Shown piece by piece: positions 3,891-18,805 of a stretch of 61,860 nucleotides of DNA; within the stretch, counting starts at the first letter, position 1; each line of letters opens with the position of its first letter. Made by a program: the position numbers and the translations under genes. A model generated the notes under the pieces. That model saw only the letters and a list, made by a program, of their open reading frames with translations, did not search any database and was not told the DNA's origin. The stretch is from Coriobacteriaceae bacterium (GTDB lineage Bacteria > Actinomycetota > Coriobacteriia > Coriobacteriales > UMGS124), in NCBI GenBank assembly GCA_019420325.1, contig JAHZHK010000001.1, forward strand, positions 1-61,860. The letters run 5' to 3'.

Positions 3891-3984
3891 TCTCGGGCTA
3901 TCAAGCTGCAAGTGCGGGTATCATGTGCCGAGTCAAAAAACGATGTCGCGGCGCGGGTCGTGTGGTCGAGGAGGCATGTGAGAC

Positions 3985-6450
3985 ATGGCTATGCAGATGG
4001 TGAGGCTCGGGGACGTGTGCCGGGCGGCAAAGGAAGGCGAGCAGGACCTTACGGTGGCCGAGCGCTCGGCGCGCAAGGGGCCGTACGCCTACTTTGCCGA
4101 CAACTGTCAGTCGTTTGGTGTCGATGATTGGCTTGTGGATGCGGGCGGTGCAATCATCGTCCCTGCGTACGGCCAGATTGTGGCAAACACCGGGTATGTC
4201 ATGGCGCGCAAGGAGCAGGGGCGCTTCTCCTTTGGCAAGCAGGTGTATGCCCTCGTGCCCCACGACCGCACCGACACCGACTACCTCTACAACGTCATCA
4301 CGCACTCCCCGCAGGTGGCCCGCCAGGTCACCGGAACTCCTCAGCTGCGCCAGATTTCCCTGACCGCGCTGCTTGCCTCGCGCATTCCCTGGCCCTGCCG
4401 CGCTGTGCGCGACGCGTTTGTCGAGATGATTGAGGCTGACGAGGCCGAGTTCAAGCGCCTGCGCGCCCTGCCTGCCCAGCTCATGGCCGAGGGTGACGAG
4501 GCGTTTGCGAGCATTGTGGCCGCCGACGGTTCCGAGACCCTCGCCATGGCGGATGCCGTGGCATGGCGTACGGGCACCTCGGTGGCGGCCGAGCTGCGCG
4601 GCCCCGACAAGGCGGTGCGCGTGGAAGGCAGCCGCTGCACGCTGGGCCGCTGCGATGAGGTTCTGGCCGAGGGACCCTGTGTCGTGGCCGCCCCCCAGGG
4701 TCGCGCCATGGTCGCGCGCTACGTTCCCGAGGCATGCCACCCCTTGCAGGATGTGCTCTATGCCTGTGCGGCCGACTCCAAAGTCGAGCTGGGTGTCCTG
4801 CTGTTTGCCCTGCGTGCCGCCCGTGTGCGCGAGGGTCTGCCCAGGCAGGACTGGGTGAGCGAGCAAGACTTCGGTGCCCTGTGCCTGCACGTGGGCACCA
4901 TCGAGCAGCAGGAACGCTTCGCTTCTGTCGCAAGCGACATCTTCGACCGCCTTGCCAAGGCCGAGGCCGACCTTGTCCAGCTCGAGCGCGACCACGCGGC
5001 GCGCCTGGCGGAGTTCTTCACGCATGGCCGCGTGGGGGTCGATGGGTCGAGCGCGGTCGACGACGAGCCGCTCGGCGAAATCCCCGCGGCGCCCGAGGCG
5101 ATTGCCGCGTGTGGAAAGGACGCCGGCCAGGAGCGGGAAGATAGCGCTGATGCCGACTCCATGCCGGCCGACCTGCGTGGGCGCGTTGCGCAGATGGGCG
5201 TGCTTGCTCCTCTTGCCGCTCAGGGGCTGGAGATTCTGAGCGATCCTGCCGATGTTGCCTGGGAGCTTGCGCCCCTAGCCGTTGTGCGCGCGTGCGCCTC
5301 GAGCTCGCAGTGGGCGTTCGTCGCCGCCGCTGCCGGCCCCTATGCCGCGCCTGCCTATGCCAATCTCGTGCGCGCGCTCGACACGGTCATGACCGAGCTC
5401 TCCGAGTCCAACGACCTGCTGTCGTTCTTGCCCAACCTCTCGTACGGTTCGTCTCTGCTGACGCTTGAGCAGCTTGCTGGGTGGGTCGGTATGCTCGACG
5501 CCATCGAGCCGGGCACCATTACGGGTGCTGCCGTGCGCGCCGTGCTGCGCCTCGACTCCTCGTTTGCCGTGCTGCCTGACTCAGTCAACGGCCTGCTAGA
5601 GGGCGCGGTGCGCTCCTGCGCCCGTGGCCTGGGTCACGAGCCGCAAAGCGCCTATGTGCCCTGCTCGTCGGGCGAGGGTCTCATCGACCTGCTCGCACAT
5701 GATTTTCCCGAGGCCACGCTGCGCTCCCAAACGCAGGAGTTCTCCCATATCCTGGCCGACATGCTCGTGAGGGCCGCCGAGCTCGAGGGTATGGGCGAGC
5801 AGCGTGGTGGCCTGGGTGCCGCCGTGGGCAGTGCGCTTGCGCATGACGAGTTCAGCGACTGGCGGGCCGACCTTGTGTGCGCTGCACTTCCTTGTGAAGA
5901 GGGCGCCTGGCATGAGGGCGCCGTCTCGCCCGACGATCCCCGTTGGGCCGCGCTGGGCGTGCCTCCGCGCAACAAGGCGACGTTCGCTTGGATTCAGCAG
6001 GCGATGTTCCACCAGGCGACGGGGGGAGCCGTCGTGCTTCTCGCGCCGAACTGCGCCTTGCATTCATGCGTGGGCAGCGAGACTGAGCTGCGCCGCAAGC
6101 TTGCTACCTCGGGTCGCGTACGCGCCGTCGTGTCGCTGCCCTCGCGCATCTTTGCCGACGGCCGCCCTGCCTCGAGCCTGATCGTGCTGGGTGACCCGCG
6201 CGACGCCGCCTGCGCGCAGACGCTCATGGTTGACATGCTTGGCTGCGGCGTGCCTTCGAGTGGCACGTGCGCGGGTGCCGCTGCGACCCGCGAGCTTCCC
6301 GCCGAGGTTGCCGCCCATGCCGCGCGCGTGCTCGCGGCTTGGGTCGAGCGTGGTGAAGCGTCGTGCGAGCAGGGCTTCTGCCGCGTCGTCGGCGCCGAGG
6401 AGATTGCCGCAAACGTCGACGTCCTTACCCCTTGGACGTACGTGGGGTAG
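3985..6450 (+). CDS. Type I R-M-like HsdS (two target-recognition domains) fused to an HsdM-like C-terminal domain with degenerate catalytic motifs
   Basis: N-terminal about 350 aa have the S-subunit layout: VRLGDV..., ISLTALLASRIPWPCRAVRDAFVEMIE, and a second TRD ending LHVGTIEQQERFASVASDIFDRL. The C-terminal part aligns by eye to HsdM: YVPCSSGEGLIDLL in place of DPxCGSGgFL, DLVCAALPCEE in place of D.v.aNPPF, then NKATFAWIQQAMFH, ETELRRKL..GRVRAVVSLPSRIF and a C-terminal EEIAANVDVLTPWTYV. Confidence 0.6.
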   Translation: MAMQMVRLGDVCRAAKEGEQDLTVAERSARKGPYAYFADNCQSFGVDDWLVDAGGAIIVPAYGQIVANTGYVMARKEQGRFSFGKQVYALVPHDRTDTDYLYNVITHSPQVARQVTGTPQLRQISLTALLASRIPWPCRAVRDAFVEMIEADEAEFKRLRALPAQLMAEGDEAFASIVAADGSETLAMADAVAWRTGTSVAAELRGPDKAVRVEGSRCTLGRCDEVLAEGPCVVAAPQGRAMVARYVPEACHPLQDVLYACAADSKVELGVLLFALRAARVREGLPRQDWVSEQDFGALCLHVGTIEQQERFASVASDIFDRLAKAEADLVQLERDHAARLAEFFTHGRVGVDGSSAVDDEPLGEIPAAPEAIAACGKDAGQEREDSADADSMPADLRGRVAQMGVLAPLAAQGLEILSDPADVAWELAPLAVVRACASSSQWAFVAAAAGPYAAPAYANLVRALDTVMTELSESNDLLSFLPNLSYGSSLLTLEQLAGWVGMLDAIEPGTITGAAVRAVLRLDSSFAVLPDSVNGLLEGAVRSCARGLGHEPQSAYVPCSSGEGLIDLLAHDFPEATLRSQTQEFSHILADMLVRAAELEGMGEQRGGLGAAVGSALAHDEFSDWRADLVCAALPCEEGAWHEGAVSPDDPRWAALGVPPRNKATFAWIQQAMFHQATGGAVVLLAPNCALHSCVGSETELRRKLATSGRVRAVVSLPSRIFADGRPASSLIVLGDPRDAACAQTLMVDMLGCGVPSSGTCAGAAATRELPAEVAAHAARVLAAWVERGEASCEQGFCRVVGAEEIAANVDVLTPWTYVG

Positions 6451-6639
6451 GCCCTGAGCCTCGATGCCCGCACCTTGCCTCGCAGCTCTGCGTTCGGCGT
6501 GAGCCGCTGGGGTGAAGCCGTGCGGCGCATGCCGCGTCTTGTTTGGGTTTTACCGCGCTTTGCAGGTTTGACGTGCTGGGAGCGCGGTTCTCATCGTCAG
6601 TCAATGCGGCTGTGAGCCGCCCGTGAAAGGAGCTCTTCC

Positions 6640-7050
6640 ATGAGTGGAATCGATACCGTCCTGCAGTACCTCCAGGCCGTTCCTGCCTGGTATCTCGCCA
6701 CGAGCGTCGACGACCAGCCCCATGTGCGCCCCTTCAGCTATGCCGCTGAGTGCGACGGCCGCGTGTGGTTCGTGACCGCCACGACCAAGGACGTCTGGCA
6801 GGAGCTGCTTGCCAACCAGAAGTTCGAGGCCACGAGCTGGTGGCCCGGCCACGGCTGGCTCATCCTTCGTGGCCTGGCCGGCCTCAAGGACGAGGTCACG
6901 CCCGAGATTCGTAAGGCCGGCTACGAGCACCTCACGGCCCTCGGCGAGTCCTATGATGGTCCCGACGACCCCACCCTCGTTTTCTTCTCTGTCGAGCAGC
7001 CCCAAGCCTGGATCTGCAACCACGACGAATGGGTGCCCGTAGAAATCTAG
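6640..7050 (+). CDS. Pyridoxamine 5'-phosphate oxidase-like FMN-binding split-barrel family protein
   Basis: 136 aa. The pattern WYLATSVDDQPHVRPFSY....DGRVWFVTATTKDVWQEL..N is typical of small PNPOx-like proteins. GAAAGGAG RBS. Confidence 0.65.
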   Translation: MSGIDTVLQYLQAVPAWYLATSVDDQPHVRPFSYAAECDGRVWFVTATTKDVWQELLANQKFEATSWWPGHGWLILRGLAGLKDEVTPEIRKAGYEHLTALGESYDGPDDPTLVFFSVEQPQAWICNHDEWVPVEI

Positions 7051-7067
7051 GATGAGTCGAAACCCAA

Positions 7068-7182
7068 CGGAAAGCTACCAGTAAGAATGTCGGAAAATCA
7101 CCGGTGAAACTGCCGGAAAAGTACCAGCGTAACTGTCGGAAAATTACCAGTGAACCTCACGGAAAATCATCAATGCGATATA
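7068..7182. repeat. Five tandem direct repeats with an exact 23-bp period (consensus about CGGAAAAnTACCAGTGAAaCTGt)
   Basis: Units start at 7068, 7091, 7114, 7137 and 7160: cggaaagctaccagtaagaatgt / cggaaaatcaccggtgaaactgc / cggaaaagtaccagcgtaactgt / cggaaaattaccagtgaacctca / cggaaaatcatcaatgcgatata. The array lies in the intergenic region immediately upstream of the ATPase gene. Confidence 0.9.
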
Positions 7183-7184
7183 AT
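7179..7184 (+). promoter_or_regulatory. Possible -10 box (TATAAT) overlapping the last 23-bp repeat
   Basis: Perfect TATAAT 39 nt upstream of the ATG at 7223. No convincing -35 was identified. Confidence 0.3.
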
Positions 7185-7222
7185 GACCTGGTAGATGAGC
7201 ATTGTGAGGGGAGGGTTTTGCG

Positions 7223-8536
7223 ATGGCATCCGTGGCACACAAGGCGGTCAGGCCGCAAGGCTACATACCGCGCATTGCCGACGAAAGGGTCGAGCGCTAC
7301 CTGCGGGTGTTTGGGGCCGTCGAGCTTGCAGGGACCAAGTGGTGCGGCAAGACCTGGACGGCTCTCGAGCATGCCGGGAGCGTGAGCTATGTTGACCGGG
7401 CGTTGGCCCTGGCGCGTGAAGACCCGACGTCCATGCTGGTGGGTGACAAGCCGCACGTCATCGACGAGTGGCAGCTTGCCCCGGCGATTTGGGACGCTGT
7501 CCGCCATGAAATTGACTTGACCCGCGGTTTGCGCGGTGGATGGATCCTTACGGGTTCCTCAACCCCCTTGCCCCGCGACGTGGGCGAGGGGGGTTTGCCG
7601 TGCCACAGCGGGGCCGGCCGCATCGGAAGGGTACGCATGCGGCCCATGACGCTGTCCGAGAGCGGCGACTCTGAGCGCACGGTCTCGCTGGCGGGCCTGT
7701 TCCGGGGCGAGTTCGAGCCGTCTTTGGTCCATACCGACGCCGAGACGCTCGTCGGGCTTGCCTGTCGCGGTGGCTGGCCGGCTGCCGTCGACCTGGCTCC
7801 CGAGGATGCACAGTTAGTCGCCCGCGATTACCTGCGCCTGCTGAGACGCGAAAGCGTGCCGCGCCAGGGAAAGGACGGCGACATCGCGGGGCGCCTGCTG
7901 TTCTCGCTGGCCCGAAACCTCGGGCAGGCGGCGACGTACAAGACGCTGCTCGTCGACATGTGCGACGCCGACGGCGAGGGCGGCGTCTCCCAGACGACCC
8001 TCGTCTCCTACCTGGCGCTGCTGCGGAACATGTACGTTATCGACGAGGTCCCGGGTTGGGCACCTCAAGCCCGCTCGCCCAAGCGAGTCTCCACCAAACC
8101 CAAGCGCTACCTCGCCGACCCGTCCTTGGCCGTGGCGGCGCTCGGCATGTCGCCCGATGCTTTCATGCAGGATTGGCAGACGTTCGGCCTCGTGTTCGAG
8201 GCCATGTGCATCCGCGACCTCGAGGTGTATGCCGAGGCGCTCGAGCCGGCGGCGGATATCCCCGTGAGGTATTACCGCGACGAGACGGGTCTTGAGGTCG
8301 ACGCCATCGTCGAGCTGGCAGACGGCAGATGGGCGGCGTTCGAGGTGAAGACAAGCGAGGTCAAGGCTGCCTCGGGGATTGAGAACCTCAAGCGCTTGCG
8401 TGACAAGCTCTGCTCGAACCCAGCCTCCCGCACCAGGCCACCCGAGTTCATGGCGGTGCTGACGGGGGTGTCGGATTACGCGAGGAAGGTCGAGGACGGC
8501 CTGTACGTCATCCCGATTCGCAGCCTGACGGCTTAA
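7223..8536 (+). CDS. AAA-type ATP-binding protein, DUF4143-containing family
   Basis: 437 aa. Walker A GTKWCGKT. Overall pattern (ERYL..FGAV.L.G...CGKT...IDEWQ..P.IWDAV..EID) matches the widespread ATPase/DUF4143 family. Confidence 0.7.
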   Translation: MASVAHKAVRPQGYIPRIADERVERYLRVFGAVELAGTKWCGKTWTALEHAGSVSYVDRALALAREDPTSMLVGDKPHVIDEWQLAPAIWDAVRHEIDLTRGLRGGWILTGSSTPLPRDVGEGGLPCHSGAGRIGRVRMRPMTLSESGDSERTVSLAGLFRGEFEPSLVHTDAETLVGLACRGGWPAAVDLAPEDAQLVARDYLRLLRRESVPRQGKDGDIAGRLLFSLARNLGQAATYKTLLVDMCDADGEGGVSQTTLVSYLALLRNMYVIDEVPGWAPQARSPKRVSTKPKRYLADPSLAVAALGMSPDAFMQDWQTFGLVFEAMCIRDLEVYAEALEPAADIPVRYYRDETGLEVDAIVELADGRWAAFEVKTSEVKAASGIENLKRLRDKLCSNPASRTRPPEFMAVLTGVSDYARKVEDGLYVIPIRSLTA

Positions 8537-8590
8537 GGGGCGGGTAGGGCCGTCTTCCGGCCCGCGCCGTTGTGCATGGCCTGCCGACGC

Positions 8591-8596
8591 TATAAT
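8591..8596 (+). promoter_or_regulatory. Possible -10 box (TATAAT) upstream of the methyltransferase operon
   Basis: Perfect TATAAT about 100 nt upstream of the start at 8693, in the 156-nt gap after the ATPase gene. Confidence 0.3.
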
Positions 8597-8692
8597 GACG
8601 AGCGGTGTAGCTCAAGAAAGGTCGCGGGGCGGGTGTTCTGCCTTGGCTTGAGTCCCCATGATTAAAACCTCGCGAGGAAAGGCCAGTGGTAC

Positions 8693-10859
<2,167 letters not shown>

Positions 10860-10861
10860 CC

Positions 10862-13800
10862 ATGGCAAGCATCGACATCTCCCAGATCATTGAGACTGCT
10901 GTGCCTGCCATCCCGCAGGTCTATGCCTACACGACGCCCGAGATTGCGCGGCATGACGGGTGGACCAAAATTGGCTACACGGAGCAGAACGTCTGCGAAC
11001 GCATCAAGCAGCAGACGCACACCGCCGATGTGAAGTGGAACCTCGAGTGGAGCGGCAACGCCACCTGGGAGCATGGAGCCGGGACGTTTCGTGACACCGA
11101 CTTTCATGCGTATCTCGAGAAGCAGGGCGTGAGGCGCGAACCCAAGACCGAGTGGTTTGAAATCGGCGGGGAAGAGTCGCACCAGCAGTTCTATCGCTTC
11201 CGCGACACGGGCGGCACCCTTGCAACGCCCGAAGCCTCACCCTACGAGCTGCGCGCAGAGCAGGCACGTGCCGTTGAACAGACGCTCGCCTACGCTCGGG
11301 CACATTGGAGCGAGACAGGCGAGGGCGGTGGCGAATTCTTGTGGAACGCCAAGCCGCGCTTTGGCAAGACGCTCACGACCTACGACCTCTGCAAGCGCCT
11401 CGGCGCCAAGAAGGTCCTCATCGTGACCAACCGCCCCGCCATTGCCAACTCCTGGTACGACGACTACGTGAAGTTCCTGGGCAAAGAGTCGGGCTTCTGC
11501 TTCATCAGCAACGTGAGCGCACTGCAGGGAAGGCCTTTCTGCATGTCGCGCGAGGAGTATCTGCATCAGGGTCGCGGGGGCTTCATCGAGTTCGTGAGCC
11601 TGCAGGACCTGAAGGGTTCTATCCACTTCGGAGGCCCCTATCGCAAGCTCGAGGAGGTTGCCGAGCTCACCTGGGACGTCCTGGTCATCGACGAGGCGCA
11701 CGAGGGTGTGGACACCTTCAAGACCGACGTGGCGTTCGACCGTATCAAGCGCCGCTTCACGCTACATCTCTCCGGCACCCCGTTCAAGGCCATCGCCAAC
11801 GAGAAGTTCGCTGCCGACGCCATCTACAACTGGACCTATGCCGACGAGCAGCAGGCCAAGCGCGCCTGGCCCGCCGACTCCGAGCTGCCCAACCCCTACG
11901 CCAACCTGCCTCGTCTGAGCCTGCTCACTTATCAGATGAGCGACATCGTCGCCGACGAGGCGCGCCATGGTATGGAAATCGACGGCGAGCAGACGGAGTT
12001 CGCGTTCGACCTCAACGAGTTCTTCTCCACCACGCAGGGCGGGGCCTTCGTGCATGACGCCGACGTGGACAAGTTCCTCGACGCCCTCACGACTCGGGGC
12101 AAGTTCCCGTTCTCCACGCCCGAGCTCAGAGGCGAGTTGAAGCATACGTTCTGGATGCTGAACCGTGTGGATTCGGCAAAGGCCCTCGCCAAGAAGCTGA
12201 GGAACCACCCAGTGTTCAAAGACTACGAGGTGGTCCTTGCCGCAGGCGACGGCAAGATTGACGATGACGACGAGAACGAGAAGTCGTTCGACAAGGTGCG
12301 CGAGGCCATTGAAAAGCACGACAAGACCATCACTCTCTCCGTCGGCCAGCTGACAACGGGTGTCACCATACCCGAGTGGACAGCCGTGCTCATGCTCTCC
12401 AACATGCAGAGCCCGGCGCTCTACATGCAGGCGGCTTTTCGTGCGCAGAACCCGTGCCTCTTCGACTTGGGCGGCGGCAGGTTTGCCCGCAAGGAGAATG
12501 CCTACGTCTTCGACTTCGACCCGGCGCGCACGCTCACCATCTTCGAGGAATTCGCCAACGACCTATACAGCGAGACTGCCAAAGGCGCTGGCGACGTTGA
12601 GACGCGTGAGAGCCATATCCGTCAGCTGCTGAACTTCTTCCCTGTGTACGGCGAGGACGATGGCGGCGAGATGATCGAGCTTGACGCCGAGCGCGTGCTG
12701 AGCGTGCCTCGACACATCCATGCCCGCGAGGTCGTGAAGCGCGGGTTCATGAGCAACTTCCTCTTTCAGAACATCTCGAGTGTGTTTCGCGCGCCGGCCG
12801 AGGTGGTCCAGATCATCCAACGCTTCGACCCCTACGAGCAGGGCAAGGCAAAGGACAGGGACAAGAACAAGGTCGATGTCGACAAAGACACGGCAGATGA
12901 GCTCTCACTCAACGACGACGGTGAGGTCGAGATTCCCGAGGAACAGGTCATCGGTATGGCCCAGGACATCTTCGGGCCCAAAGTCTACGGCAATGTGGCT
13001 GCTGACCTGGCGCGCCAGGTTGAGGCCGTGGTCGCCGCGCGCGATGGCGGCGCGGACGTCCTGCTCGACAACCTCAAAGAGGCCTTCAAGAGCCATGTCA
13101 CTGAACCCTTGGTGATTGCGGTTTCGCAAAGCTATGGCAGCGAGCTCAAGCCCCGTCAGAAGAAGCAGCTTGAGCGCAAGGTCCAGGCCGAGGCCGTCAT
13201 CCAGCTGAACCGTGAGGTCGGCGGCTATCAAATCGAGGTGAAGCAGATCGAGTGGTCGCGTAAAGACCGACTGGCTGAAGCGTCAAACGAGGCTGAGCGC
13301 GAGCAGGTCAACCGCGAGCACGACGAGCAGAAGGCGCAGGCCTTCCAGGCGCTCACCCAAAAACTCGAGGAGTCCCGCGAGGAGCTTGTGCGCAGTGCCG
13401 GTGAGACCGTTGTGCGCGAGGTTGAGACGGCCAAGAAGGAGGAGCAGAAGCAAGGCGTCGAGGATAAGGTCCGGGCGCACTTGCGCGGTTTCAGCCGTAC
13501 CATTCCCTCGTTTCTCATGGCGTACGGAGAGCACGGCACCACGCTCTCCAGTTTCGACGCGGTGATTCCGCCGGATGTGTTTGAGGAAGTCACGAGCATC
13601 ACGGTGGACGAGTTCCGGTTCTTGCGCGACGGCGGCGACTATGTCGATGAGCAGACCGGCGAGACAAGGAACTTCGTAGGCCACCTGTTCGACGAAGTGG
13701 TGTTTAACGACTCCGTCGAGGAGTTCATCAAGCTTAGGGAGCGCCTTGCCGATTACTTCGACGAGACACAGGTCGAGGATATCTTCGATTACGTGCCGCC

Positions 13801-14221
13801 GCAGAAGACCAACCAGATCTTCACGCCGAAGAACGTCGTGCGCGACATGGTGGACATGTTCGAGCGCGAGAACCCCGGCTGCTTCGACGACCCGAGCCAC
13901 ACCTTTGCCGACCTCTACATGAAGAGTGGCCTGTACATCACCGAGATTATCAAGCGCTTGTACCGCAGTGAGGGGATGAAGGCCTCCTTCCCCGACGATC
14001 GCGAGCGACTCGATCACATCCTCGAACATCAGGTGTTCGGCATCGCCCCGACGAAGATCATCTATGAGATTGCGACGAACTACATCCTCGGCTTCAACGA
14101 CGAGGTTGGCCAAGGATGCGACACCAACTTCGTAATGGCCGACTCTTCCGAGCTGGCCAAAGAGGGCAAGCTCGAGGCTTTCGTCGAGCGTGTGTTTGGC
14201 CCGAAGCTCTACGAGGAGTGA
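10862..14221 (+). CDS. GIY-YIG (T5orf172-like) nuclease domain fused to a DEAH/SF2 Res-like helicase, with coiled-coil and a truncated methyltransferase-like C-terminus
   Basis: The N-terminus VYAYTTPEIARHDGWTKIGYTEQNVCERIKQ...EWFEI is GIY-YIG/T5orf172-like. Helicase motifs: KPRFGKT (I), VLVIDEAHEG (II), LHLSGTPF (III), QAAFRAQN (VI-like). C-terminal QIFTPKNVVRDMV...FADLYMKSGLYI resembles MTase motifs X and I, but no NPPY follows. The ATG lies 2 nt after the MTase stop. Confidence 0.75.
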   Translation: MASIDISQIIETAVPAIPQVYAYTTPEIARHDGWTKIGYTEQNVCERIKQQTHTADVKWNLEWSGNATWEHGAGTFRDTDFHAYLEKQGVRREPKTEWFEIGGEESHQQFYRFRDTGGTLATPEASPYELRAEQARAVEQTLAYARAHWSETGEGGGEFLWNAKPRFGKTLTTYDLCKRLGAKKVLIVTNRPAIANSWYDDYVKFLGKESGFCFISNVSALQGRPFCMSREEYLHQGRGGFIEFVSLQDLKGSIHFGGPYRKLEEVAELTWDVLVIDEAHEGVDTFKTDVAFDRIKRRFTLHLSGTPFKAIANEKFAADAIYNWTYADEQQAKRAWPADSELPNPYANLPRLSLLTYQMSDIVADEARHGMEIDGEQTEFAFDLNEFFSTTQGGAFVHDADVDKFLDALTTRGKFPFSTPELRGELKHTFWMLNRVDSAKALAKKLRNHPVFKDYEVVLAAGDGKIDDDDENEKSFDKVREAIEKHDKTITLSVGQLTTGVTIPEWTAVLMLSNMQSPALYMQAAFRAQNPCLFDLGGGRFARKENAYVFDFDPARTLTIFEEFANDLYSETAKGAGDVETRESHIRQLLNFFPVYGEDDGGEMIELDAERVLSVPRHIHAREVVKRGFMSNFLFQNISSVFRAPAEVVQIIQRFDPYEQGKAKDRDKNKVDVDKDTADELSLNDDGEVEIPEEQVIGMAQDIFGPKVYGNVAADLARQVEAVVAARDGGADVLLDNLKEAFKSHVTEPLVIAVSQSYGSELKPRQKKQLERKVQAEAVIQLNREVGGYQIEVKQIEWSRKDRLAEASNEAEREQVNREHDEQKAQAFQALTQKLEESREELVRSAGETVVREVETAKKEEQKQGVEDKVRAHLRGFSRTIPSFLMAYGEHGTTLSSFDAVIPPDVFEEVTSITVDEFRFLRDGGDYVDEQTGETRNFVGHLFDEVVFNDSVEEFIKLRERLADYFDETQVEDIFDYVPPQKTNQIFTPKNVVRDMVDMFERENPGCFDDPSHTFADLYMKSGLYITEIIKRLYRSEGMKASFPDDRERLDHILEHQVFGIAPTKIIYEIATNYILGFNDEVGQGCDTNFVMADSSELAKEGKLEAFVERVFGPKLYEE

Positions 14222-14225
14222 ACAC

Positions 14226-15560
14226 GTGGTCGGTTCGAATTGCGGCTTACAAGACGGGCGCGCGGATGCGGCGCGCGAGGCGGTCGCGTCGGTGCGGCGC
14301 GAGGACACTGAGATATGTGCCCGCCTCGTCTTTCGCACCTCCCGCAGCGAGTTGAGGAGCTCCGGGATAACCACGCCCGTCGCGCTCTACGATGAGTTGA
14401 AACAGGTCTTCTGGAACGTCGAGGAAGGGGTCGTTCTGGGTGACCACCTTTCCGTGGGATTCGGCAAGGTGGACCGCCGTCGGCAGGTCCGGTCTTTCGC
14501 CTCGCGTCATGCAGACGAACCGAGAGATATCGTTGCGAAGGCCTACGAGCGCGAATACGGCTTCAGCGCCGGCATCGCGGCGATATGGCTCGATCTGTTC
14601 GCCGAGCTCTCGGGCGTAAGCATCGCGGAATGGCTCGGCACCGAGGCGGCGCAGGACGCAGATACTGCTTCGCGCTCCGCCAATGCCGCCGATGTCCCAA
14701 CGGGCACATCGGCGATGGAGGCCGACAGTGGGAGCAACGCAATCACCCTTAGCGGCTTCCTTGCCAGAGAGCTTAACGGCGACATCTGCGATGCGGAGCT
14801 CGTGCGTCGGCGTTTCGCCTTCGAATTCCCTGGCGAACGTGTGGAGGCGCTTGAGTGCGGAATCGAGGGCCTCGGCTACTATGAAGACCATGGCCTGCTA
14901 TTCCATGAGGGAGATACGCCAAACGGCCACTTCACACGGCTTTTGGGAAGCTGTGCCTCCTTCGCGAAAGGCGACGTTGGGTTCGAGGACGCCGTGTGGC
15001 AGCACCCTACCTTCCGCTACGTGCTACGCCAGGCGCTTTCGGACCACCGCGTGCTTGTATACGAGGGCGACAGCTTCATCTCGTTCGCGCGGTTGCATAA
15101 CGTATTAGGCACGCTCATGGCGGATATCGAATCGTTCGCGCCCGCAGTAAGCATGGGGGTATCGGAGGACGAGCCCTTCACGGTGGCGAGCCTGCGCGCG
15201 GGCGGCGCGTCCCCTCATCCTCTGTACGAGCTTGACATGCCCGACGACTTCTACGAAGGGCTGATCGACGTGAGCGAGCTCTTTCGCAATTGCACGCTTG
15301 CCGGGACCAAAGTGTTTGTAGCCGGCGGTGAGGGACGGTTCTCTGCCGCCAACCTCATCGAGTGGCTTGTTGCTCGTCATGAGGGAATCGAACGAGACGA
15401 TTTGCCGCGCCTGCTCGCTGGCGACTTGGGGATAGCATGCCCACAGCCGCTCCTGACCACGACCATACACAATTCCGATGTCTACTACGACGACATCGGG
15501 GACGCATATTACTCATCCATGGAGACATGGAAGAAGGAGGCACGCAATGGGCTTGCTTAA
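14226..15560 (+). CDS. Hypothetical protein of about 445 aa, no recognisable domain
   Basis: ORF 14190..15560. I prefer the GTG at 14226, which sits 7 nt after a GAGGAG and 4 nt after the helicase stop. Coding-like and co-directional within the operon. The start is uncertain. Confidence 0.5.
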   Translation: MVGSNCGLQDGRADAAREAVASVRREDTEICARLVFRTSRSELRSSGITTPVALYDELKQVFWNVEEGVVLGDHLSVGFGKVDRRRQVRSFASRHADEPRDIVAKAYEREYGFSAGIAAIWLDLFAELSGVSIAEWLGTEAAQDADTASRSANAADVPTGTSAMEADSGSNAITLSGFLARELNGDICDAELVRRRFAFEFPGERVEALECGIEGLGYYEDHGLLFHEGDTPNGHFTRLLGSCASFAKGDVGFEDAVWQHPTFRYVLRQALSDHRVLVYEGDSFISFARLHNVLGTLMADIESFAPAVSMGVSEDEPFTVASLRAGGASPHPLYELDMPDDFYEGLIDVSELFRNCTLAGTKVFVAGGEGRFSAANLIEWLVARHEGIERDDLPRLLAGDLGIACPQPLLTTTIHNSDVYYDDIGDAYYSSMETWKKEARNGLA

Positions 15561-16758
15561 TGAGGGAATTGCTACCGGCAACGTTCTGCCGACGGGGCGC
15601 AAAGAGAAGCACTCCATCGATAACGTGACGCGGGACTTCGACATCTACCGCATCAAATGCGACCTGCTGTTCTACAACGACCAGAACGACCGCATCGCTA
15701 CGTGGGTGAGCGAGTACGACTCGACGCAGGGCGCGAACCTGCTCGCTCTCGGCCGTGACGAGTACAACGGCGTCATCGAGAACTTCATCGTCGACAGCAA
15801 TCCCGCAGCGCTTCGAAAGACCGAGAAGAGCATCGCCCTTCAAGGCCAGCTGAGGCCGGGCATAGTGCTCAACGACGGACGCGTCATCGACGGCAACCGT
15901 CGCCTGACCTGCCTGCGTCGTCTCGCGCGGGAAAACAACGAGGTCGGCTGGTTCGAGGCGGCCATTCTTGACGACGCCACCGGCAGCGACCCGAAGCGCA
16001 TCAAGCTGCTCGAGCTCGCGATTCAGATCGGCGAGGAAGAGAAAGTGGCATACGACCCGGTCGACCGCCTCGTTGGCGTGTACCGCGACGTGGTGAAAAA
16101 CCACCTCATCACACCTGCCGAGTACGGCAGTGCGACGGGCATGACCGAGGCTGAGGTCAGGAAGCTCGTCGACCGCGCACAATACATGGAAGAGTTCCTC
16201 GAGTTTTGCCAGGCTCCCGAACAATACCACCTCGCCCGCGCCCTCAAGGTTGACGGCCCCTTGGGCGAGTTCAGCCGTGTGCTGAAGAAGTACGGTAGCA
16301 AGCGGGATAAGGAGCTTGTCAAACGGCTTATGTTTGCCAATATGGTGGTGCAGCCCGAAGGAGATATCACCCGTTACGTCAGGGATTTCGGCAGCGTGGC
16401 GGGCACGGACGCCGAGGCCGACTTCAAAGCTGCGGAGCTGCAGTCGATGTCCGAGCTTCTCGACAAGATGGGCCCTGATGCCCTCACTCGCGAAAAGGTC
16501 AGCGAGCTGCGCTCGGATGCCAACCTCGTCGATGGCTTCAGGCGCGCCGGGGACCGCGCCAGGGAAACCGTTCGTCGCGGCAAACTCATGGACACACCGG
16601 CAAAGAAATCCGCCGACTGCCTCGCAGAATTAGAAAAGATCCTCCCCGAGATGCTCGACGTCCTGGGGCCGGACGAGCTTGAGAAGGTGCGCCGCAACCT
16701 CTTGGATGTCGCCGAAAAAGTGGAAGAGCTGATTGGAGAGATCGATGAGCGTGCCTAG
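15547..16758 (+). CDS. ParB/Srx-fold (ParB N-terminal domain-like) protein
   Basis: ORF 15478..16758. ATG at 15547 with a GGAGG RBS, overlapping the previous gene by 14 nt. GIVLNDGRVIDGNRRLTCLRRLA is a ParB-type DGxRR box (15889-15903). The remainder is helical with no other motif. Confidence 0.6.
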   Translation: MGLLNEGIATGNVLPTGRKEKHSIDNVTRDFDIYRIKCDLLFYNDQNDRIATWVSEYDSTQGANLLALGRDEYNGVIENFIVDSNPAALRKTEKSIALQGQLRPGIVLNDGRVIDGNRRLTCLRRLARENNEVGWFEAAILDDATGSDPKRIKLLELAIQIGEEEKVAYDPVDRLVGVYRDVVKNHLITPAEYGSATGMTEAEVRKLVDRAQYMEEFLEFCQAPEQYHLARALKVDGPLGEFSRVLKKYGSKRDKELVKRLMFANMVVQPEGDITRYVRDFGSVAGTDAEADFKAAELQSMSELLDKMGPDALTREKVSELRSDANLVDGFRRAGDRARETVRRGKLMDTPAKKSADCLAELEKILPEMLDVLGPDELEKVRRNLLDVAEKVEELIGEIDERA

Positions 16759-18688
16759 GGTCGTCGTCTGCTACGACAACGCCCGACCCGGCATGCATCT
16801 GAGTATCGAGGGACAAGACGCTGCCACATTCATGGCGTCAGCGGCGTGGCGCGCTTGGCTGTATTACCCAGCCAGTGCGGTGGAAGGCGTCGAAGACAAC
16901 CGCATCCTGCTCGATGGGGACATGGGTCTGCGCGAATGCCATGAGATGTGCGATGCGGTGCTTGAGGCCGACGGCCATGGTGTCGAGGTCCAGGTAAGCC
17001 GAAGTTTCGACGAGTACGTGAACGCGGGTGAGACGTACATACGGGAGAGGTCGAAGATGGGACTTGCGATCAAGTCCCAGACTGCCGACGGTATCGCCGA
17101 CGACCCCCAACTAGGACCGCTGTTCCAAGAGTTCCGCGATGTAGTGAACTCCGCCATGGTGCGCCCGCTTCGTAACCGTCAGATGCTTGACGCCTTCTTC
17201 ATGGCAACCGTGGGCCGTTCGGCGGATTTCTCGGTGCCCGGCGCAGGTAAGACCGCAACCGTGCTCGGTGTGTTCGCCCACCTGAGGCATCTTGGGCTAG
17301 CTCGCCGAGTGGTTGTCGTCTGCCCCAAGAACGGTTTCGAGTCGTGGGAGAAGGAGTGGGTTGCGACGTTCGGGGACAAACTCCCGCTCGACTGCTTCTC
17401 TCTAGGCGACTCGCGTGTGGCTGCTTTGACCATGGACAGTCGAAAGCGTGCCCTTTCGCTTGATAGCGGGAGATGCAACCTCTTTACGTTCAACTACGAG
17501 TCGCTTCAAAACTATGTAGGCGAGCTGCATCCTATAGTCGCCGACGGAACTCTTCTCGTGTTCGACGAGGTGCATCGGGCGAAGGCAATCGGCGGCAAAC
17601 GTGCGAGGGCGGCGTTGGAGGCATCCAAGGGGGCCGAGTTCGTCGTCGCCCTGACGGGAACGCCCATCCCTAACACGTATCAGGACATCTACAACTTCCT
17701 GCACATCCTCTATCCTGAAGACTACGACACGTTCTTTGGATACGAGCCCGGCGAGCTCAAGGCGCCCGGTCCCAGAGTCGTGGAGGACATCAACCGGAGC
17801 CTCGCCCCGTTCTTCTGCCGCACGAACAAGGATGAGCTCGGCGTGCCACGACCCGAGCCCGACACCATGGTGGAGGTTGAGGCGTCGGCGGACGAGAACA
17901 CGCTGATGCGCGTGCTCGATGGGGTATGTCCCAACGTGCTTGCCTTTACCGTGCGAATGCTGCAGCTGGAAAGCGACCCGGAACTGCTTGGCTCGGCCGT
18001 CGACCCCGGCGACCTCGAGTATGTTCTCGACCAGGTCGGCGACGCGTATGACGACATCGACTACGTGGACTTCTCCCAGACCTTTTACGACGCCATTGAG
18101 CGGAGTCGACCGAGCTCGAAGCTGCTGGCGTGCGAGAGGCTGGTGGCCGATATCGTGGCGCAAGGCAGGCCTGTCGTTGTGTGGTGCATCTTCGTGCGCA
18201 GCATCAGCAACATGCGCAAGCGCCTCTCGGCATTGGGCATATCCGTCGAGACGATCTACGGGGCGACGCCGCAGGACGAGCGTCGCCAGATTCTGGACGA
18301 TTTCAGGGCGGGCAAGTTCAAGGTCCTTGTGACCAATCCCCAAACACTTGCAGAATCCGTCTCTCTGCACATGGTGTGCCATGATGCCGTCTATTTCGAG
18401 TACGGCTACAACCTCGTCCATCTGTTGCAGTCCAAGGACCGCATCCATCGACTTGGGCTGCCGGACGGGCAAAAGACCCGGTACTACTTCATGCGTCAGG
18501 TCTTTACATACCAGGGAAAGCCCTTTTCGCTTGACGAGGCGATATACGGTCGCCTGAAGGCGAAGGAGCAGACGATGCTCGATGCCATCGAGGGCGGCTA
18601 CCTTGAGGGCGGTTATACCGACGAGGAGGACCTGAAGGCGATCTGGGAGCAGCTCCTCGGCGATGCGGCGAAGAGGTTGAGGTACTAG
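16745..18688 (+). CDS. SNF2-family helicase
   Basis: Motifs: SVPGAGKTAT (I), LLVFDEVHRAK (II), VALTGTPIPN (III), VLVTNPQTLAESVSL (V), LLQSKDRIHRLG (VI). ATG at 16745 overlaps the ParB-like gene by 14 nt. The N-terminal about 140 aa are unassigned. Confidence 0.8.
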   Translation: MSVPRVVVCYDNARPGMHLSIEGQDAATFMASAAWRAWLYYPASAVEGVEDNRILLDGDMGLRECHEMCDAVLEADGHGVEVQVSRSFDEYVNAGETYIRERSKMGLAIKSQTADGIADDPQLGPLFQEFRDVVNSAMVRPLRNRQMLDAFFMATVGRSADFSVPGAGKTATVLGVFAHLRHLGLARRVVVVCPKNGFESWEKEWVATFGDKLPLDCFSLGDSRVAALTMDSRKRALSLDSGRCNLFTFNYESLQNYVGELHPIVADGTLLVFDEVHRAKAIGGKRARAALEASKGAEFVVALTGTPIPNTYQDIYNFLHILYPEDYDTFFGYEPGELKAPGPRVVEDINRSLAPFFCRTNKDELGVPRPEPDTMVEVEASADENTLMRVLDGVCPNVLAFTVRMLQLESDPELLGSAVDPGDLEYVLDQVGDAYDDIDYVDFSQTFYDAIERSRPSSKLLACERLVADIVAQGRPVVVWCIFVRSISNMRKRLSALGISVETIYGATPQDERRQILDDFRAGKFKVLVTNPQTLAESVSLHMVCHDAVYFEYGYNLVHLLQSKDRIHRLGLPDGQKTRYYFMRQVFTYQGKPFSLDEAIYGRLKAKEQTMLDAIEGGYLEGGYTDEEDLKAIWEQLLGDAAKRLRY

Positions 18689-18741
18689 ACAGACGAGGTT
18701 CTCCGGCGTGCGGGGGCAGACCCGCCGCGTTGGCAAGAAAA

Positions 18742-18772
18742 GGGGCACAGGCGCGCGGCACGCCCGTGCCCC
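18742..18772. terminator. GC-rich hairpin between convergent genes (SNF2 helicase / pepF), likely a bidirectional terminator
   Basis: GGGGCACAGGCG-cgcggca-CGCCCGTGCCCC (12-bp stem, one mismatch), flanked by AAAA 5' and GGGTTTT 3'. Confidence 0.5.
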
Positions 18773-18805
18773 CGGGTTTTGCAGGGCTTGCTGCCCTCGC
18801 GTTCC

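Follow-up and report, generated by a model that had tools for sequence, protein, structure and literature searches.

A single-chain HsdS-HsdM-like pseudo-methyltransferase family of Coriobacteriia and its possible role as a fixed-sequence DNA reader

Components of restriction-modification (RM) systems are normally mobile, fast-evolving and enzymatic. In a stretch of 61,860 nucleotides (nt) from a Coriobacteriaceae bacterium (GenBank assembly GCA_019420325.1, contig JAHZHK010000001.1, positions 1 to 61,860 of the forward strand; the whole 61.9-kb stretch is hereafter called the window), one open reading frame (ORF) raises the question of what becomes of such a component when its chemistry is gone. 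The ORF, at 3985-6450 of the plus strand, starts with ATG in the ORF listing with translations and encodes a protein of 821 amino acids (aa), in which a Type I specificity subunit (HsdS) seems to run directly into a modification subunit (HsdM) with altered methyltransferase motifs. A preliminary description, made from the sequence alone, had taken the product for a methylation-dead DNA-binding derivative, either a regulator or a decoy, or alternatively for a methyltransferase with an unorthodox active site. Is the gene a decaying remnant, a disguised enzyme, or a protein with another task?

We found that the gene belongs to a real, conserved and uncharacterised pseudoenzyme family rather than being an isolated case of decay. 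What was once a defence module seems to have taken on a non-enzymatic task, most likely the reading of a fixed DNA sequence, because the gene has been kept as an ordinary chromosomal gene under selection in gut Coriobacteria. The family breaks the usual RM pattern: the recognition core is fused, catalysis is stripped, the specificity is seemingly frozen, and the gene is kept throughout a bacterial class with a prominent place in the human and animal gut. The searchable literature yielded no account of a natural dead S-M fusion or of such a family.

Architecture and motif loss

The protein consists of a complete HsdS with two target recognition domains (TRDs) and a single HsdM-like module, which is attached to it covalently by an acidic, flexible linker. 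The features of the gene are listed below; dN/dS is the ratio of nonsynonymous to synonymous substitution rates, and pLDDT is the predicted local distance difference test score.

3985..6450, plus strand: whole gene, single-chain HsdS-HsdM-like pseudo-methyltransferase (ORF; 89 full-length homologues; dN/dS ~0.15)
3985..4398, plus strand: TRD1, residues 1-138 (AlphaFold2 strands and helices; PADLOC Specificity_I; profile matches to HsdS chains at residues 79-167)
4399..4515, plus strand: central conserved-region helix, residues 139-177 (AlphaFold2 helix; Foldseek HsdS matches)
4537..4890, plus strand: TRD2, residues 185-302 (AlphaFold2; profile match to the TRD of 7eew_A, E 3.8e-11, at residues 181-326)
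4900..5025, plus strand: distal conserved-region helix (CR2), residues 306-347 (AlphaFold2 helix)
5032..5163, plus strand: acidic disordered linker from S to M, residues 350-393 (pLDDT 30-58)
5167..5628, plus strand: equivalent of the HsdM N-terminal helical domain, residues 395-548 (all-helical in AlphaFold2; Foldseek matches to HsdM chains)
5647..6447, plus strand: Rossmann-type N6-adenine methyltransferase-like (MT) domain, residues 555-821 (Pfam N6_Mtase; 3khk; BLASTP to genuine HsdM)
5653..5679, plus strand: motif I remnant Y-V-P-C-S-S-G-E-G, for Y-D-P-C-C-G-S-G-G (pairwise alignment with genuine HsdM)
5884..5895, plus strand: motif IV remnant A-L-P-C, for N-P-P-F (BLASTP, phmmer and profile alignments)

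As the reference for a genuine HsdM, we used the protein of the Paenarthrobacter plasmid pADNL1, which comes from an hsdM-hsdS-hsdR operon. BLASTP placed YVPCSSGEGLI over YDPCCGSGGMF and ALPC over NPPF. The phmmer and profile alignments to the HsdM of Protein Data Bank (PDB) entry 3khk put NPPF at the same place as BLASTP, and the alignment to 3lkd was one residue off (LPPN versus NPPY); no register among these three references gives N, D or S at position 1 of motif IV or an aromatic residue at position 4. The substitutions VPCSSGEG and ALPC, which had been pointed out earlier, are thus confirmed by the alignments to the Paenarthrobacter HsdM and 3khk, with ALPC at residues 634-637 and Y-V-P-C-S-S-G-E-G at residues 557-565, since the range 5653-5679 given before includes the preceding Tyr codon. 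The 821-aa protein has neither a motif I of the form (D/E)-P-x-x-G-x-G nor a motif IV of the form (N/D)-P-P-(F/Y/W). At the motif II position, the acidic residue is kept (E585; E or D in the family).

The flanking landmarks said to be retained, FAWIQQ (667-672), ELRRKL (700-705), VVSLPSRIF (714-722) and the C-terminal peptide EEIAANVDVLTPWTYVG, were all found in the translation. The end of the protein, ...TPWTYVG, is equivalent to ...TPGRYVG of HsdM: TYVG pairs with the RYVG at residue 530 of 3khk (544 residues in all) and at residue 498 of the 542-residue Paenarthrobacter HsdM, which continues for 44 aa further. In genuine HsdM, the helical tail after RYVG bundles with the coiled coil of HsdS. 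This docking tail is missing from the 821-aa protein, and the covalent S-M link apparently stands in for it.

The AlphaFold2 model was built on 22 family members (mean pLDDT 84.6; predicted template modelling score, pTM, only 0.56) and has the topology TRD-helix-TRD-helix, linker, all-helical domain and Rossmann domain. TRD1, which takes up residues 1-135 of the model, has the canonical TRD fold with an I-P-W-P motif at its end, and in both the model and Foldseek the two TRDs alternate with two long conserved-region helices. The linker has a net charge of -9 and an identity of 15% across the family. Foldseek searches against the PDB gave, on the HsdM side, 3khk (E 1.8e-16), PacII M, 3lkd and EcoR124I M over ~480-520 aligned columns, and on the HsdS side 1ydx (E 9.5e-13, TM-score 0.57), 3okg, 1yf2 and the PacII S subunit (7vru_C). 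A profile of the N-terminal half matched the TRDs of the PDB chains 7eew_A (E 3.8e-11), 5ybb_D and 3okg (~6e-5), 1ydx (1.8e-4) and 1yf2 (5e-3), so that this half shows some, though weak, sequence similarity to HsdS, on which the earlier reading depended.

For the C-terminal half, the family profile matched the HsdM 3khk at E 1.8e-27. Pfam N6_Mtase (PF02384) matched residues 612-820 only (profile positions 109-303 of 311; E 7.5e-20; 71.9 bits against a cut-off of 20.4), and Pfam HsdM_N gave no match in the helical domain (residues 395-548). PADLOC gave Type I methyltransferase matches (best 1.9e-14) and weak Specificity_I matches (E 1e-3 to 7e-2, residues 4-161 and 213-348); the NCBIfam hsdM match was sub-threshold. 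No curated family of Pfam, NCBIfam or PADLOC spans the protein, and only its C-terminal methyltransferase part is named, from about residue 610. Taken together, the model, Foldseek and the profile matches to HsdS and HsdM bear out the two-TRD HsdS start and the S-then-M order that had been read from the ORF.

The gene was also described as an orphan, and this held: the 61.9-kb window contains no hsdR, hsdS or second hsdM, and the flanks of 28 related loci contain no HsdR or active hsdM. An HsdR encoded with M and S, as in a Type I system, was found in neither. The GC content of the gene (0.68) is in line with the backbone, which agrees with its earlier characterisation as native.

The family descends from the Type I M2S1 core (EcoKI, EcoR124I and PacII; PF02384 and PF01420), with which it shares the two-TRD HsdS, the HsdM helical domain, the gamma-class methyltransferase Rossmann fold and the HsdM landmarks after motif IV, DPRW...PP..(K)AN(F/Y)AWIQ. 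In contrast to that core, the family protein has its S and M parts, in that order, on one chain and carries one M for each S. It departs from HsdM in its destroyed motifs I and IV and its missing C-terminal tail, and from a Type I system in having no hsdR, conserved instead of variable TRDs, and vertical inheritance within one bacterial class. Covalent links between M and S are also present in the Vibrio vulnificus YJ016 methyltransferase (PDB 7EEW, M and half-S in one chain), the TRD of which is the best sequence match of TRD2 in the window (E 3.8e-11), and in the engineered EcoKI and CC398-1 M-S fusions (PMC3510504, PMC6158711). These three proteins are M-then-S, active, and work with HsdR, whereas the family protein is S-then-M without catalytic motifs. 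Type IIG/IIL and Type ISP enzymes (BpuSI, MmeI, LlaGI) likewise have a methyltransferase and a TRD in one chain, and BpuSI (3s1s) was among the structural matches, but they carry a nuclease (and in ISP a helicase), the order methyltransferase-then-TRD, a single TRD and an intact NPPY/F. None of these is found in the family protein, which has no nuclease or helicase domain, the order TRD-TRD-methyltransferase, and dead motifs. Among eukaryotic proteins, the RNA pseudo-methyltransferase METTL14 has a degenerate tetrapeptide and no productive S-adenosylmethionine (AdoMet) site, and is the obligate partner of the active METTL3. It is the nearest conceptual analogue, as a methyltransferase fold kept under selection as a nucleic-acid-binding scaffold; in the present case no active partner is evident.

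The family and the selection acting on it

A word-indexed search gave 89 clusters of relatives, nearly all of them full-length (~770-875 aa), with identities from 99% down to 39%; the 90%-identity cluster that holds the window protein has 370 member sequences. In a profile search of 1.84 billion representatives, 77 clusters fell below 1e-30, and the conservation reaches beyond 39% identity. Throughout the family alignment, motif IV reads A-L-P-P(N). Motif I has only three invariant positions, Y557, P559 and D568; a conserved GxG is missing, and the residues that replace it are variable and often charged. An intact motif of the form (N/D/S)PP(F/Y/W) was found nowhere in the 55 family representatives P0090-P0144. 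Among the next 15 sequences after P0144, 10 are ordinary HsdMs with NPPF and DPCCGSG.

A domain-wise scan with hidden Markov models distinguished four architectures in the dead clade: two TRDs with the helical and MT domains (~800 aa); one TRD with the helical and MT domains (~670 aa); one TRD with only the C-terminal half of the MT domain (~480 aa, with the motif 'CFPPPNQGxW'); and M-like (467 aa) and S-like (363 aa) proteins encoded by separate genes (locus L022). The deep-branching representatives P0106, P0110 and P0135 keep DPxxGxG without NPPF; it is therefore likely, as far as these sequences tell, that catalysis was lost first, that the cofactor site decayed next, and that it was then deleted. 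The AlphaFold2 model of a 480-aa member (pLDDT 80.8) has just one helix and a single short strand ahead of the equivalent of beta-4 and superposes on ~200 HsdM residues at ~3 Å. A complete AdoMet site is impossible in this class, the remainder of which is conserved, and this is the strongest argument that the function of the family is not methyl transfer. The suggestion that the window protein would be methylation-dead is strongly supported by the family-wide loss of NPPF, the unconserved Gly-rich AdoMet loop, and the reduced 480-aa subfamily without the AdoMet-binding half.

The dN/dS ratios were determined by the Nei-Gojobori method. Between the window gene and four relatives of 91-97% protein identity, the ratio was 0.14-0.16 overall, with 0.08-0.16 for the S half and 0.11-0.13 for the MT domain. 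The helical domain gave 0.14-0.21 for three of the relatives and 0.38 for the closest one, for which dN and dS are both very low, and in the linker the ratio was relaxed (0.3-0.9). Comparison with two ~62% relatives gave ~0.33 overall (range 0.23-0.38), with dS near saturation. Both halves are thus shown to be under purifying selection, and inheritance is vertical within Coriobacteriia. Genuine Type I systems have hypervariable TRDs and constant conserved regions. The family shows no such pattern: the identity to 15 distant members is 46% in TRD1, 40% in TRD2 and 50-52% in the MT domain, versus 26% in CR2. Judging from these alignments, the specificity of the family appears to be frozen. Contigs assembled for four metatranscriptome runs of pig and other gut samples cover the gene patchily, at 95-100% identity, which agrees with transcription but is no proof of it.

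The confirmed genome carriers are all metagenome-assembled genomes (MAGs) of Coriobacteriales/Coriobacteriaceae, and the family has so far been seen only in Coriobacteriia. Cultured carriers are Enteroscipio rubneri (828-aa form; WP_346687035) and Raoultibacter massiliensis (499-aa form), both with the annotation 'N-6 DNA methylase'. This public label is probably wrong for the family, and it will mislead surveys of methylomes and defence systems. A metagenome scan with the 480-aa class found 5 true relatives among 80 loci, the others being ordinary hsdM, and tblastn against plasmids returned only canonical HsdM, matching the C-terminal third, and no full-length relative. Two loci come from records with other labels, Acutalibacteraceae (L008) and Alistipes onderdonkii (L009). 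They carry a family gene of 61-63% identity, PNPOx-like and metA genes of 85-89% nucleotide identity to the window, and a shared Coriobacteriales-type synteny; because the synteny of the window is shared, these MAG bins are probably contaminated or mis-binned.

Possible roles of the protein

The explanation that we favour, tentatively and at somewhat less than an even chance, is that the protein is a domesticated, catalytically dead Type I methyltransferase derivative that recognises one fixed bipartite DNA sequence without modifying it and works through occupancy, in the capacity of a regulator or a chromosome-associated factor. Sequence-specific DNA binding is suggested by the conserved TRDs, the purifying selection and the vertical inheritance. 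The two TRDs would read one fixed bipartite sequence, and the dead M domain would clamp one half-site without methylating it, with occupancy instead of chemistry; the outcome would be a sequence-specific factor with a regulatory or chromosome-organising role outside defence. If DNA binding is true, the family would represent a natural case in which a programmable bipartite reader of DNA has become a cellular factor, and it could be a missing component of the control that Coriobacteriia exert over their large sets of reductases for drugs and dietary compounds. Type I recognition modules regulate genes in Streptococcus pneumoniae, where the hsdS invertons act via methylation and TRD shuffling (PMC4948785, PMC7672463). 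The family protein differs in that methylation is lost and the TRDs are fixed, and would resemble these modules in its involvement in gene regulation.

The neighbourhood of divergent relatives gives a lead to an ancestral role. Raoultibacter-like Eggerthellaceae have a cassette of a flavoprotein reductase with a twin-arginine translocation (Tat) signal, a LuxR (GerE) gene, and the 480-aa relative with one TRD and half of the MT domain. Genes of this 480-aa class (L019, L025-L029) always stand after the FAD_binding_2 (Tat signal) and GerE genes (3384-8269 in L019 and 3496-8386 in L028), and the LuxR stop and the start of the relative overlap by 4 nt (L019, L028). The reductase precedes the gene in L020 and L021 and follows it in L023/24. 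Locus L022 (333-6301) contains GerE, FAD_binding_2, the M-like gene (without NPPF) and the S-like gene, with M before S as in canonical hsdMS, the reverse of the fused S-M order. In L008, L011, L013 and L016, a LuxR/flavoprotein pair lies within ~1.5 kb. We roughly estimate that ~7 of 14 independent lineages show adjacency, against a background of ~10%. The ancestral role may have been the control of respiratory or xenobiotic reductase cassettes, because the divergent relatives are translationally coupled to a LuxR of the 12-transmembrane type and lie beside Tat-exported flavoprotein reductases.

A narrower proposal is that the protein is an exapted, methylation-independent DNA reader that works with a membrane-spanning LuxR on the genes of Tat-exported flavoprotein reductases and is autonomous in the window lineage; we give it a rather low probability. 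If this were true, a new class of bacterial transcription co-factor would have arisen from a defence enzyme. The window clade has lost the association, and the protein would there be an autonomous chromosomal factor. The association is a significant lead and no proof, because LuxR/flavoprotein pairs are very common and the identities among adjacent reductases are mostly no higher than 22-44%, the level of paralogues. In E. lenta, 83 transmembrane LuxRs are known, 50 of them near flavin enzymes (PMC9734109).

Several points weigh against a regulatory DNA reader. DNA binding, a fixed target motif and a regulatory effect are so far predictions. With one M domain per two TRDs, versus canonical M2S1, and no docking helix, the geometry on DNA is uncertain (pTM 0.56). 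The preliminary description had looked to two Pfam profiles for the domain order; N6_Mtase matched as expected (residues 612-820), but Methylase_S (PF01420) gave no match up to E 10 in the N-terminal half, which nevertheless matches HsdS TRDs by PDB profile and Foldseek. The comparison with a single HsdS by hhalign was weak (E 3e-3, probability 10%), and BLASTP against a single genuine HsdS gave nothing; for this reason, the HsdS assignment rests on the fold and on the profile matches to PDB chains. The RNA evidence consists only of assembled contigs, for which DNA carry-over is possible. In the window clade and several others, no reductase or LuxR gene lies within 7-8 kb, and none lies in the 61.9 kb of the window. 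LuxR/flavoprotein pairs are abundant in Eggerthellaceae, so that chance could account for some of the neighbourhood signal, and the association could instead point to a role that does not involve DNA. The acidity of the protein (net charge -41) was considered as a further argument against DNA binding and was dropped: a comparable acidity is found in a genuine actinobacterial HsdS/HsdM pair and in the housekeeping proteins encoded nearby, and the S half has a charge and isoelectric point of -10 and 5.2, versus -7 and 5.4 for the genuine actinobacterial HsdS.

Such a role without DNA, in which the scaffold of TRDs and dead methyltransferase would be an accessory of LuxR/flavoprotein modules, is in our view unlikely, though it is the most probable of the rival explanations. 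The protein would bind LuxR, a Tat-reductase precursor or an adenine ligand such as flavin adenine dinucleotide, and serve in signalling or cofactor loading. The conserved triad of FAD_binding_2, GerE and the gene in the 480-aa class, with its 4-nt overlap, speaks for it, as do the Tat-signal flavoprotein genes that adjoin the gene in L020-L024 and lie ~1.5 kb off in L008, L011, L013 and L016, and the PNPOx-like neighbour with a flavin mononucleotide (FMN) fold in 10 of 18 loci including the window. The lack of nearby reductase and LuxR genes in the window clade and several others counts against this accessory role too, and we know of no non-DNA ligand of TRDs. Moreover, the neighbouring flavoproteins are mostly of paralogue-level similarity, and cassettes of this kind abound in these genomes (PMC9734109). 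A less probable idea, to which we attach only a small chance, is an inactive scaffold for an active HsdM encoded in trans, in the manner of METTL14 and METTL3, with a dead M on one TRD, an active M on the other, and methylation of one strand or half-site. The two TRDs and single M domain per chain would suit this arrangement, which also recalls the engineered EcoKI M-S fusion, which needs added free M for full activity (PMC6158711), and the split relative with separate M-like and S-like genes (L022). Yet no active hsdM was found in the sequence covered, the window and the 28 related loci, the M-like partner of the split relative (P0138) is also without NPPF, and the TRDs are conserved instead of diversifying.

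A still-active DNA methyltransferase, with an unorthodox cofactor pocket and catalytic loop, was the alternative left by the preliminary description. The Rossmann fold is retained with high model confidence, the acidic motif II residue (E585) is kept, and P0106, P0110 and P0135 have DPxxGxG. Activity is nevertheless very unlikely, because NPPF is lost, the AdoMet loop is unconserved and the 480-aa class has no AdoMet-binding half while its remainder is conserved; no member has N, D or S at position 1 of motif IV or an aromatic residue at position 4, and the replacements of GxG are variable and often charged. The same description had also proposed a decoy. As such, or as an anti-restriction factor, the dead M-S protein would sequester HsdR or compete for target sites and so blunt a Type I restriction enzyme; this role would be helped by the retained HsdM-like surfaces (N-terminal helical and catalytic domains), since in canonical enzymes, as in the EcoR124I structures, these surfaces of HsdM bind HsdR. 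We regard it as similarly improbable and unsupported, because none of the 28 loci has a linked Type I system; the setting is core-like, chromosomal and vertically inherited, without a mobile element, and TRDs that are conserved would serve no purpose against real systems, whose specificities are diverse. The poorest chance of all is that of a non-functional relic of a decayed Type I system, which the degenerate motifs and the orphan status might suggest. On the selection analysis this reading is effectively refuted, with dN/dS of ~0.15 in structured domains versus up to 0.9 in the linker; the ORF is intact and full-length across relatives of 39-99% identity, the 90%-identity cluster has 370 members, and metatranscriptome fragments cover the gene.

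Surroundings of the gene

The features of the immediate surroundings are as follows.

3969..3973, plus strand: GGAGG sequence resembling a ribosome-binding site, 11 nt upstream of the ATG (read from the sequence)
6520..6537, plus strand: terminator-like hairpin, 70 nt past the stop codon (weak evidence)
6640..7050, plus strand: PNPOx-like gene with an FMN-binding fold, 136 aa (Pfam PNPOx_N, Pyrid_ox_like)

A terminator consensus scan was at chance level (2 sites versus 2.0 expected in shuffles), and a promoter scan gave no candidate. In the window clade, the gene order is aminotransferase, hypothetical, metA, the family gene and PNPOx-like; in deeper branches, it is NrdD, NrdG, the family gene and a ~200-aa membrane protein, then Lgt in several. 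The PNPOx-like gene, which is adjacent or near in the 10 loci mentioned above and on either side depending on the lineage, is only a candidate for a functional link. The conserved ~200-aa downstream gene was considered as a partner and rejected, as it encodes a multi-pass membrane protein and is absent from the window. The rest of the window is of housekeeping character: PepF, a P-type ATPase, MetRS, topoisomerase I, an Opp transporter, TrkH, RsgA and Tad pilus genes.

The PNPOx-like gene and pepF flank a strain-specific block of 11.7 kb (~7044-18800) with a lower GC content (0.54-0.60). It contains a PDC-S01/DUF4143 ATPase, a frameshifted methyltransferase, a 1119-aa T5orf172+ResIII protein, two proteins without a family match, and an SNF2 helicase. 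The block is absent from L004 and L007, which have 93-96% nucleotide identity to the window on both flanks and keep the family gene. The methyltransferase and helicase genes of the block (7.2-18.7 kb) were considered as missing partners and rejected, because the family gene is present with or without the block, which is a candidate composite defence island unrelated to the gene.

Within the block, a perfect (CAAG)x13.8 repeat at 9737-9791 lies between an MTase_II-like ORF (8693-9844) and an ORF resembling the C-terminal part of Eco57I/Type IIG enzymes (9825-10859). NPPY follows directly after the repeat in the other frame, and a simulated change of -1 or +2 units fuses the ORFs into one of 720-724 aa. 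From its sequence, the pair would seem to be a phase-variable adenine methyltransferase, at present in the OFF state. The left end of the island, immediately upstream of the gene for the DUF4143 ATPase, has four copies of a 23-bp direct repeat (7059-7169; consensus ACCAGTGAAACTGACGGAAAATC, 74% matches), perhaps what remains of an integration site or else a regulatory array.

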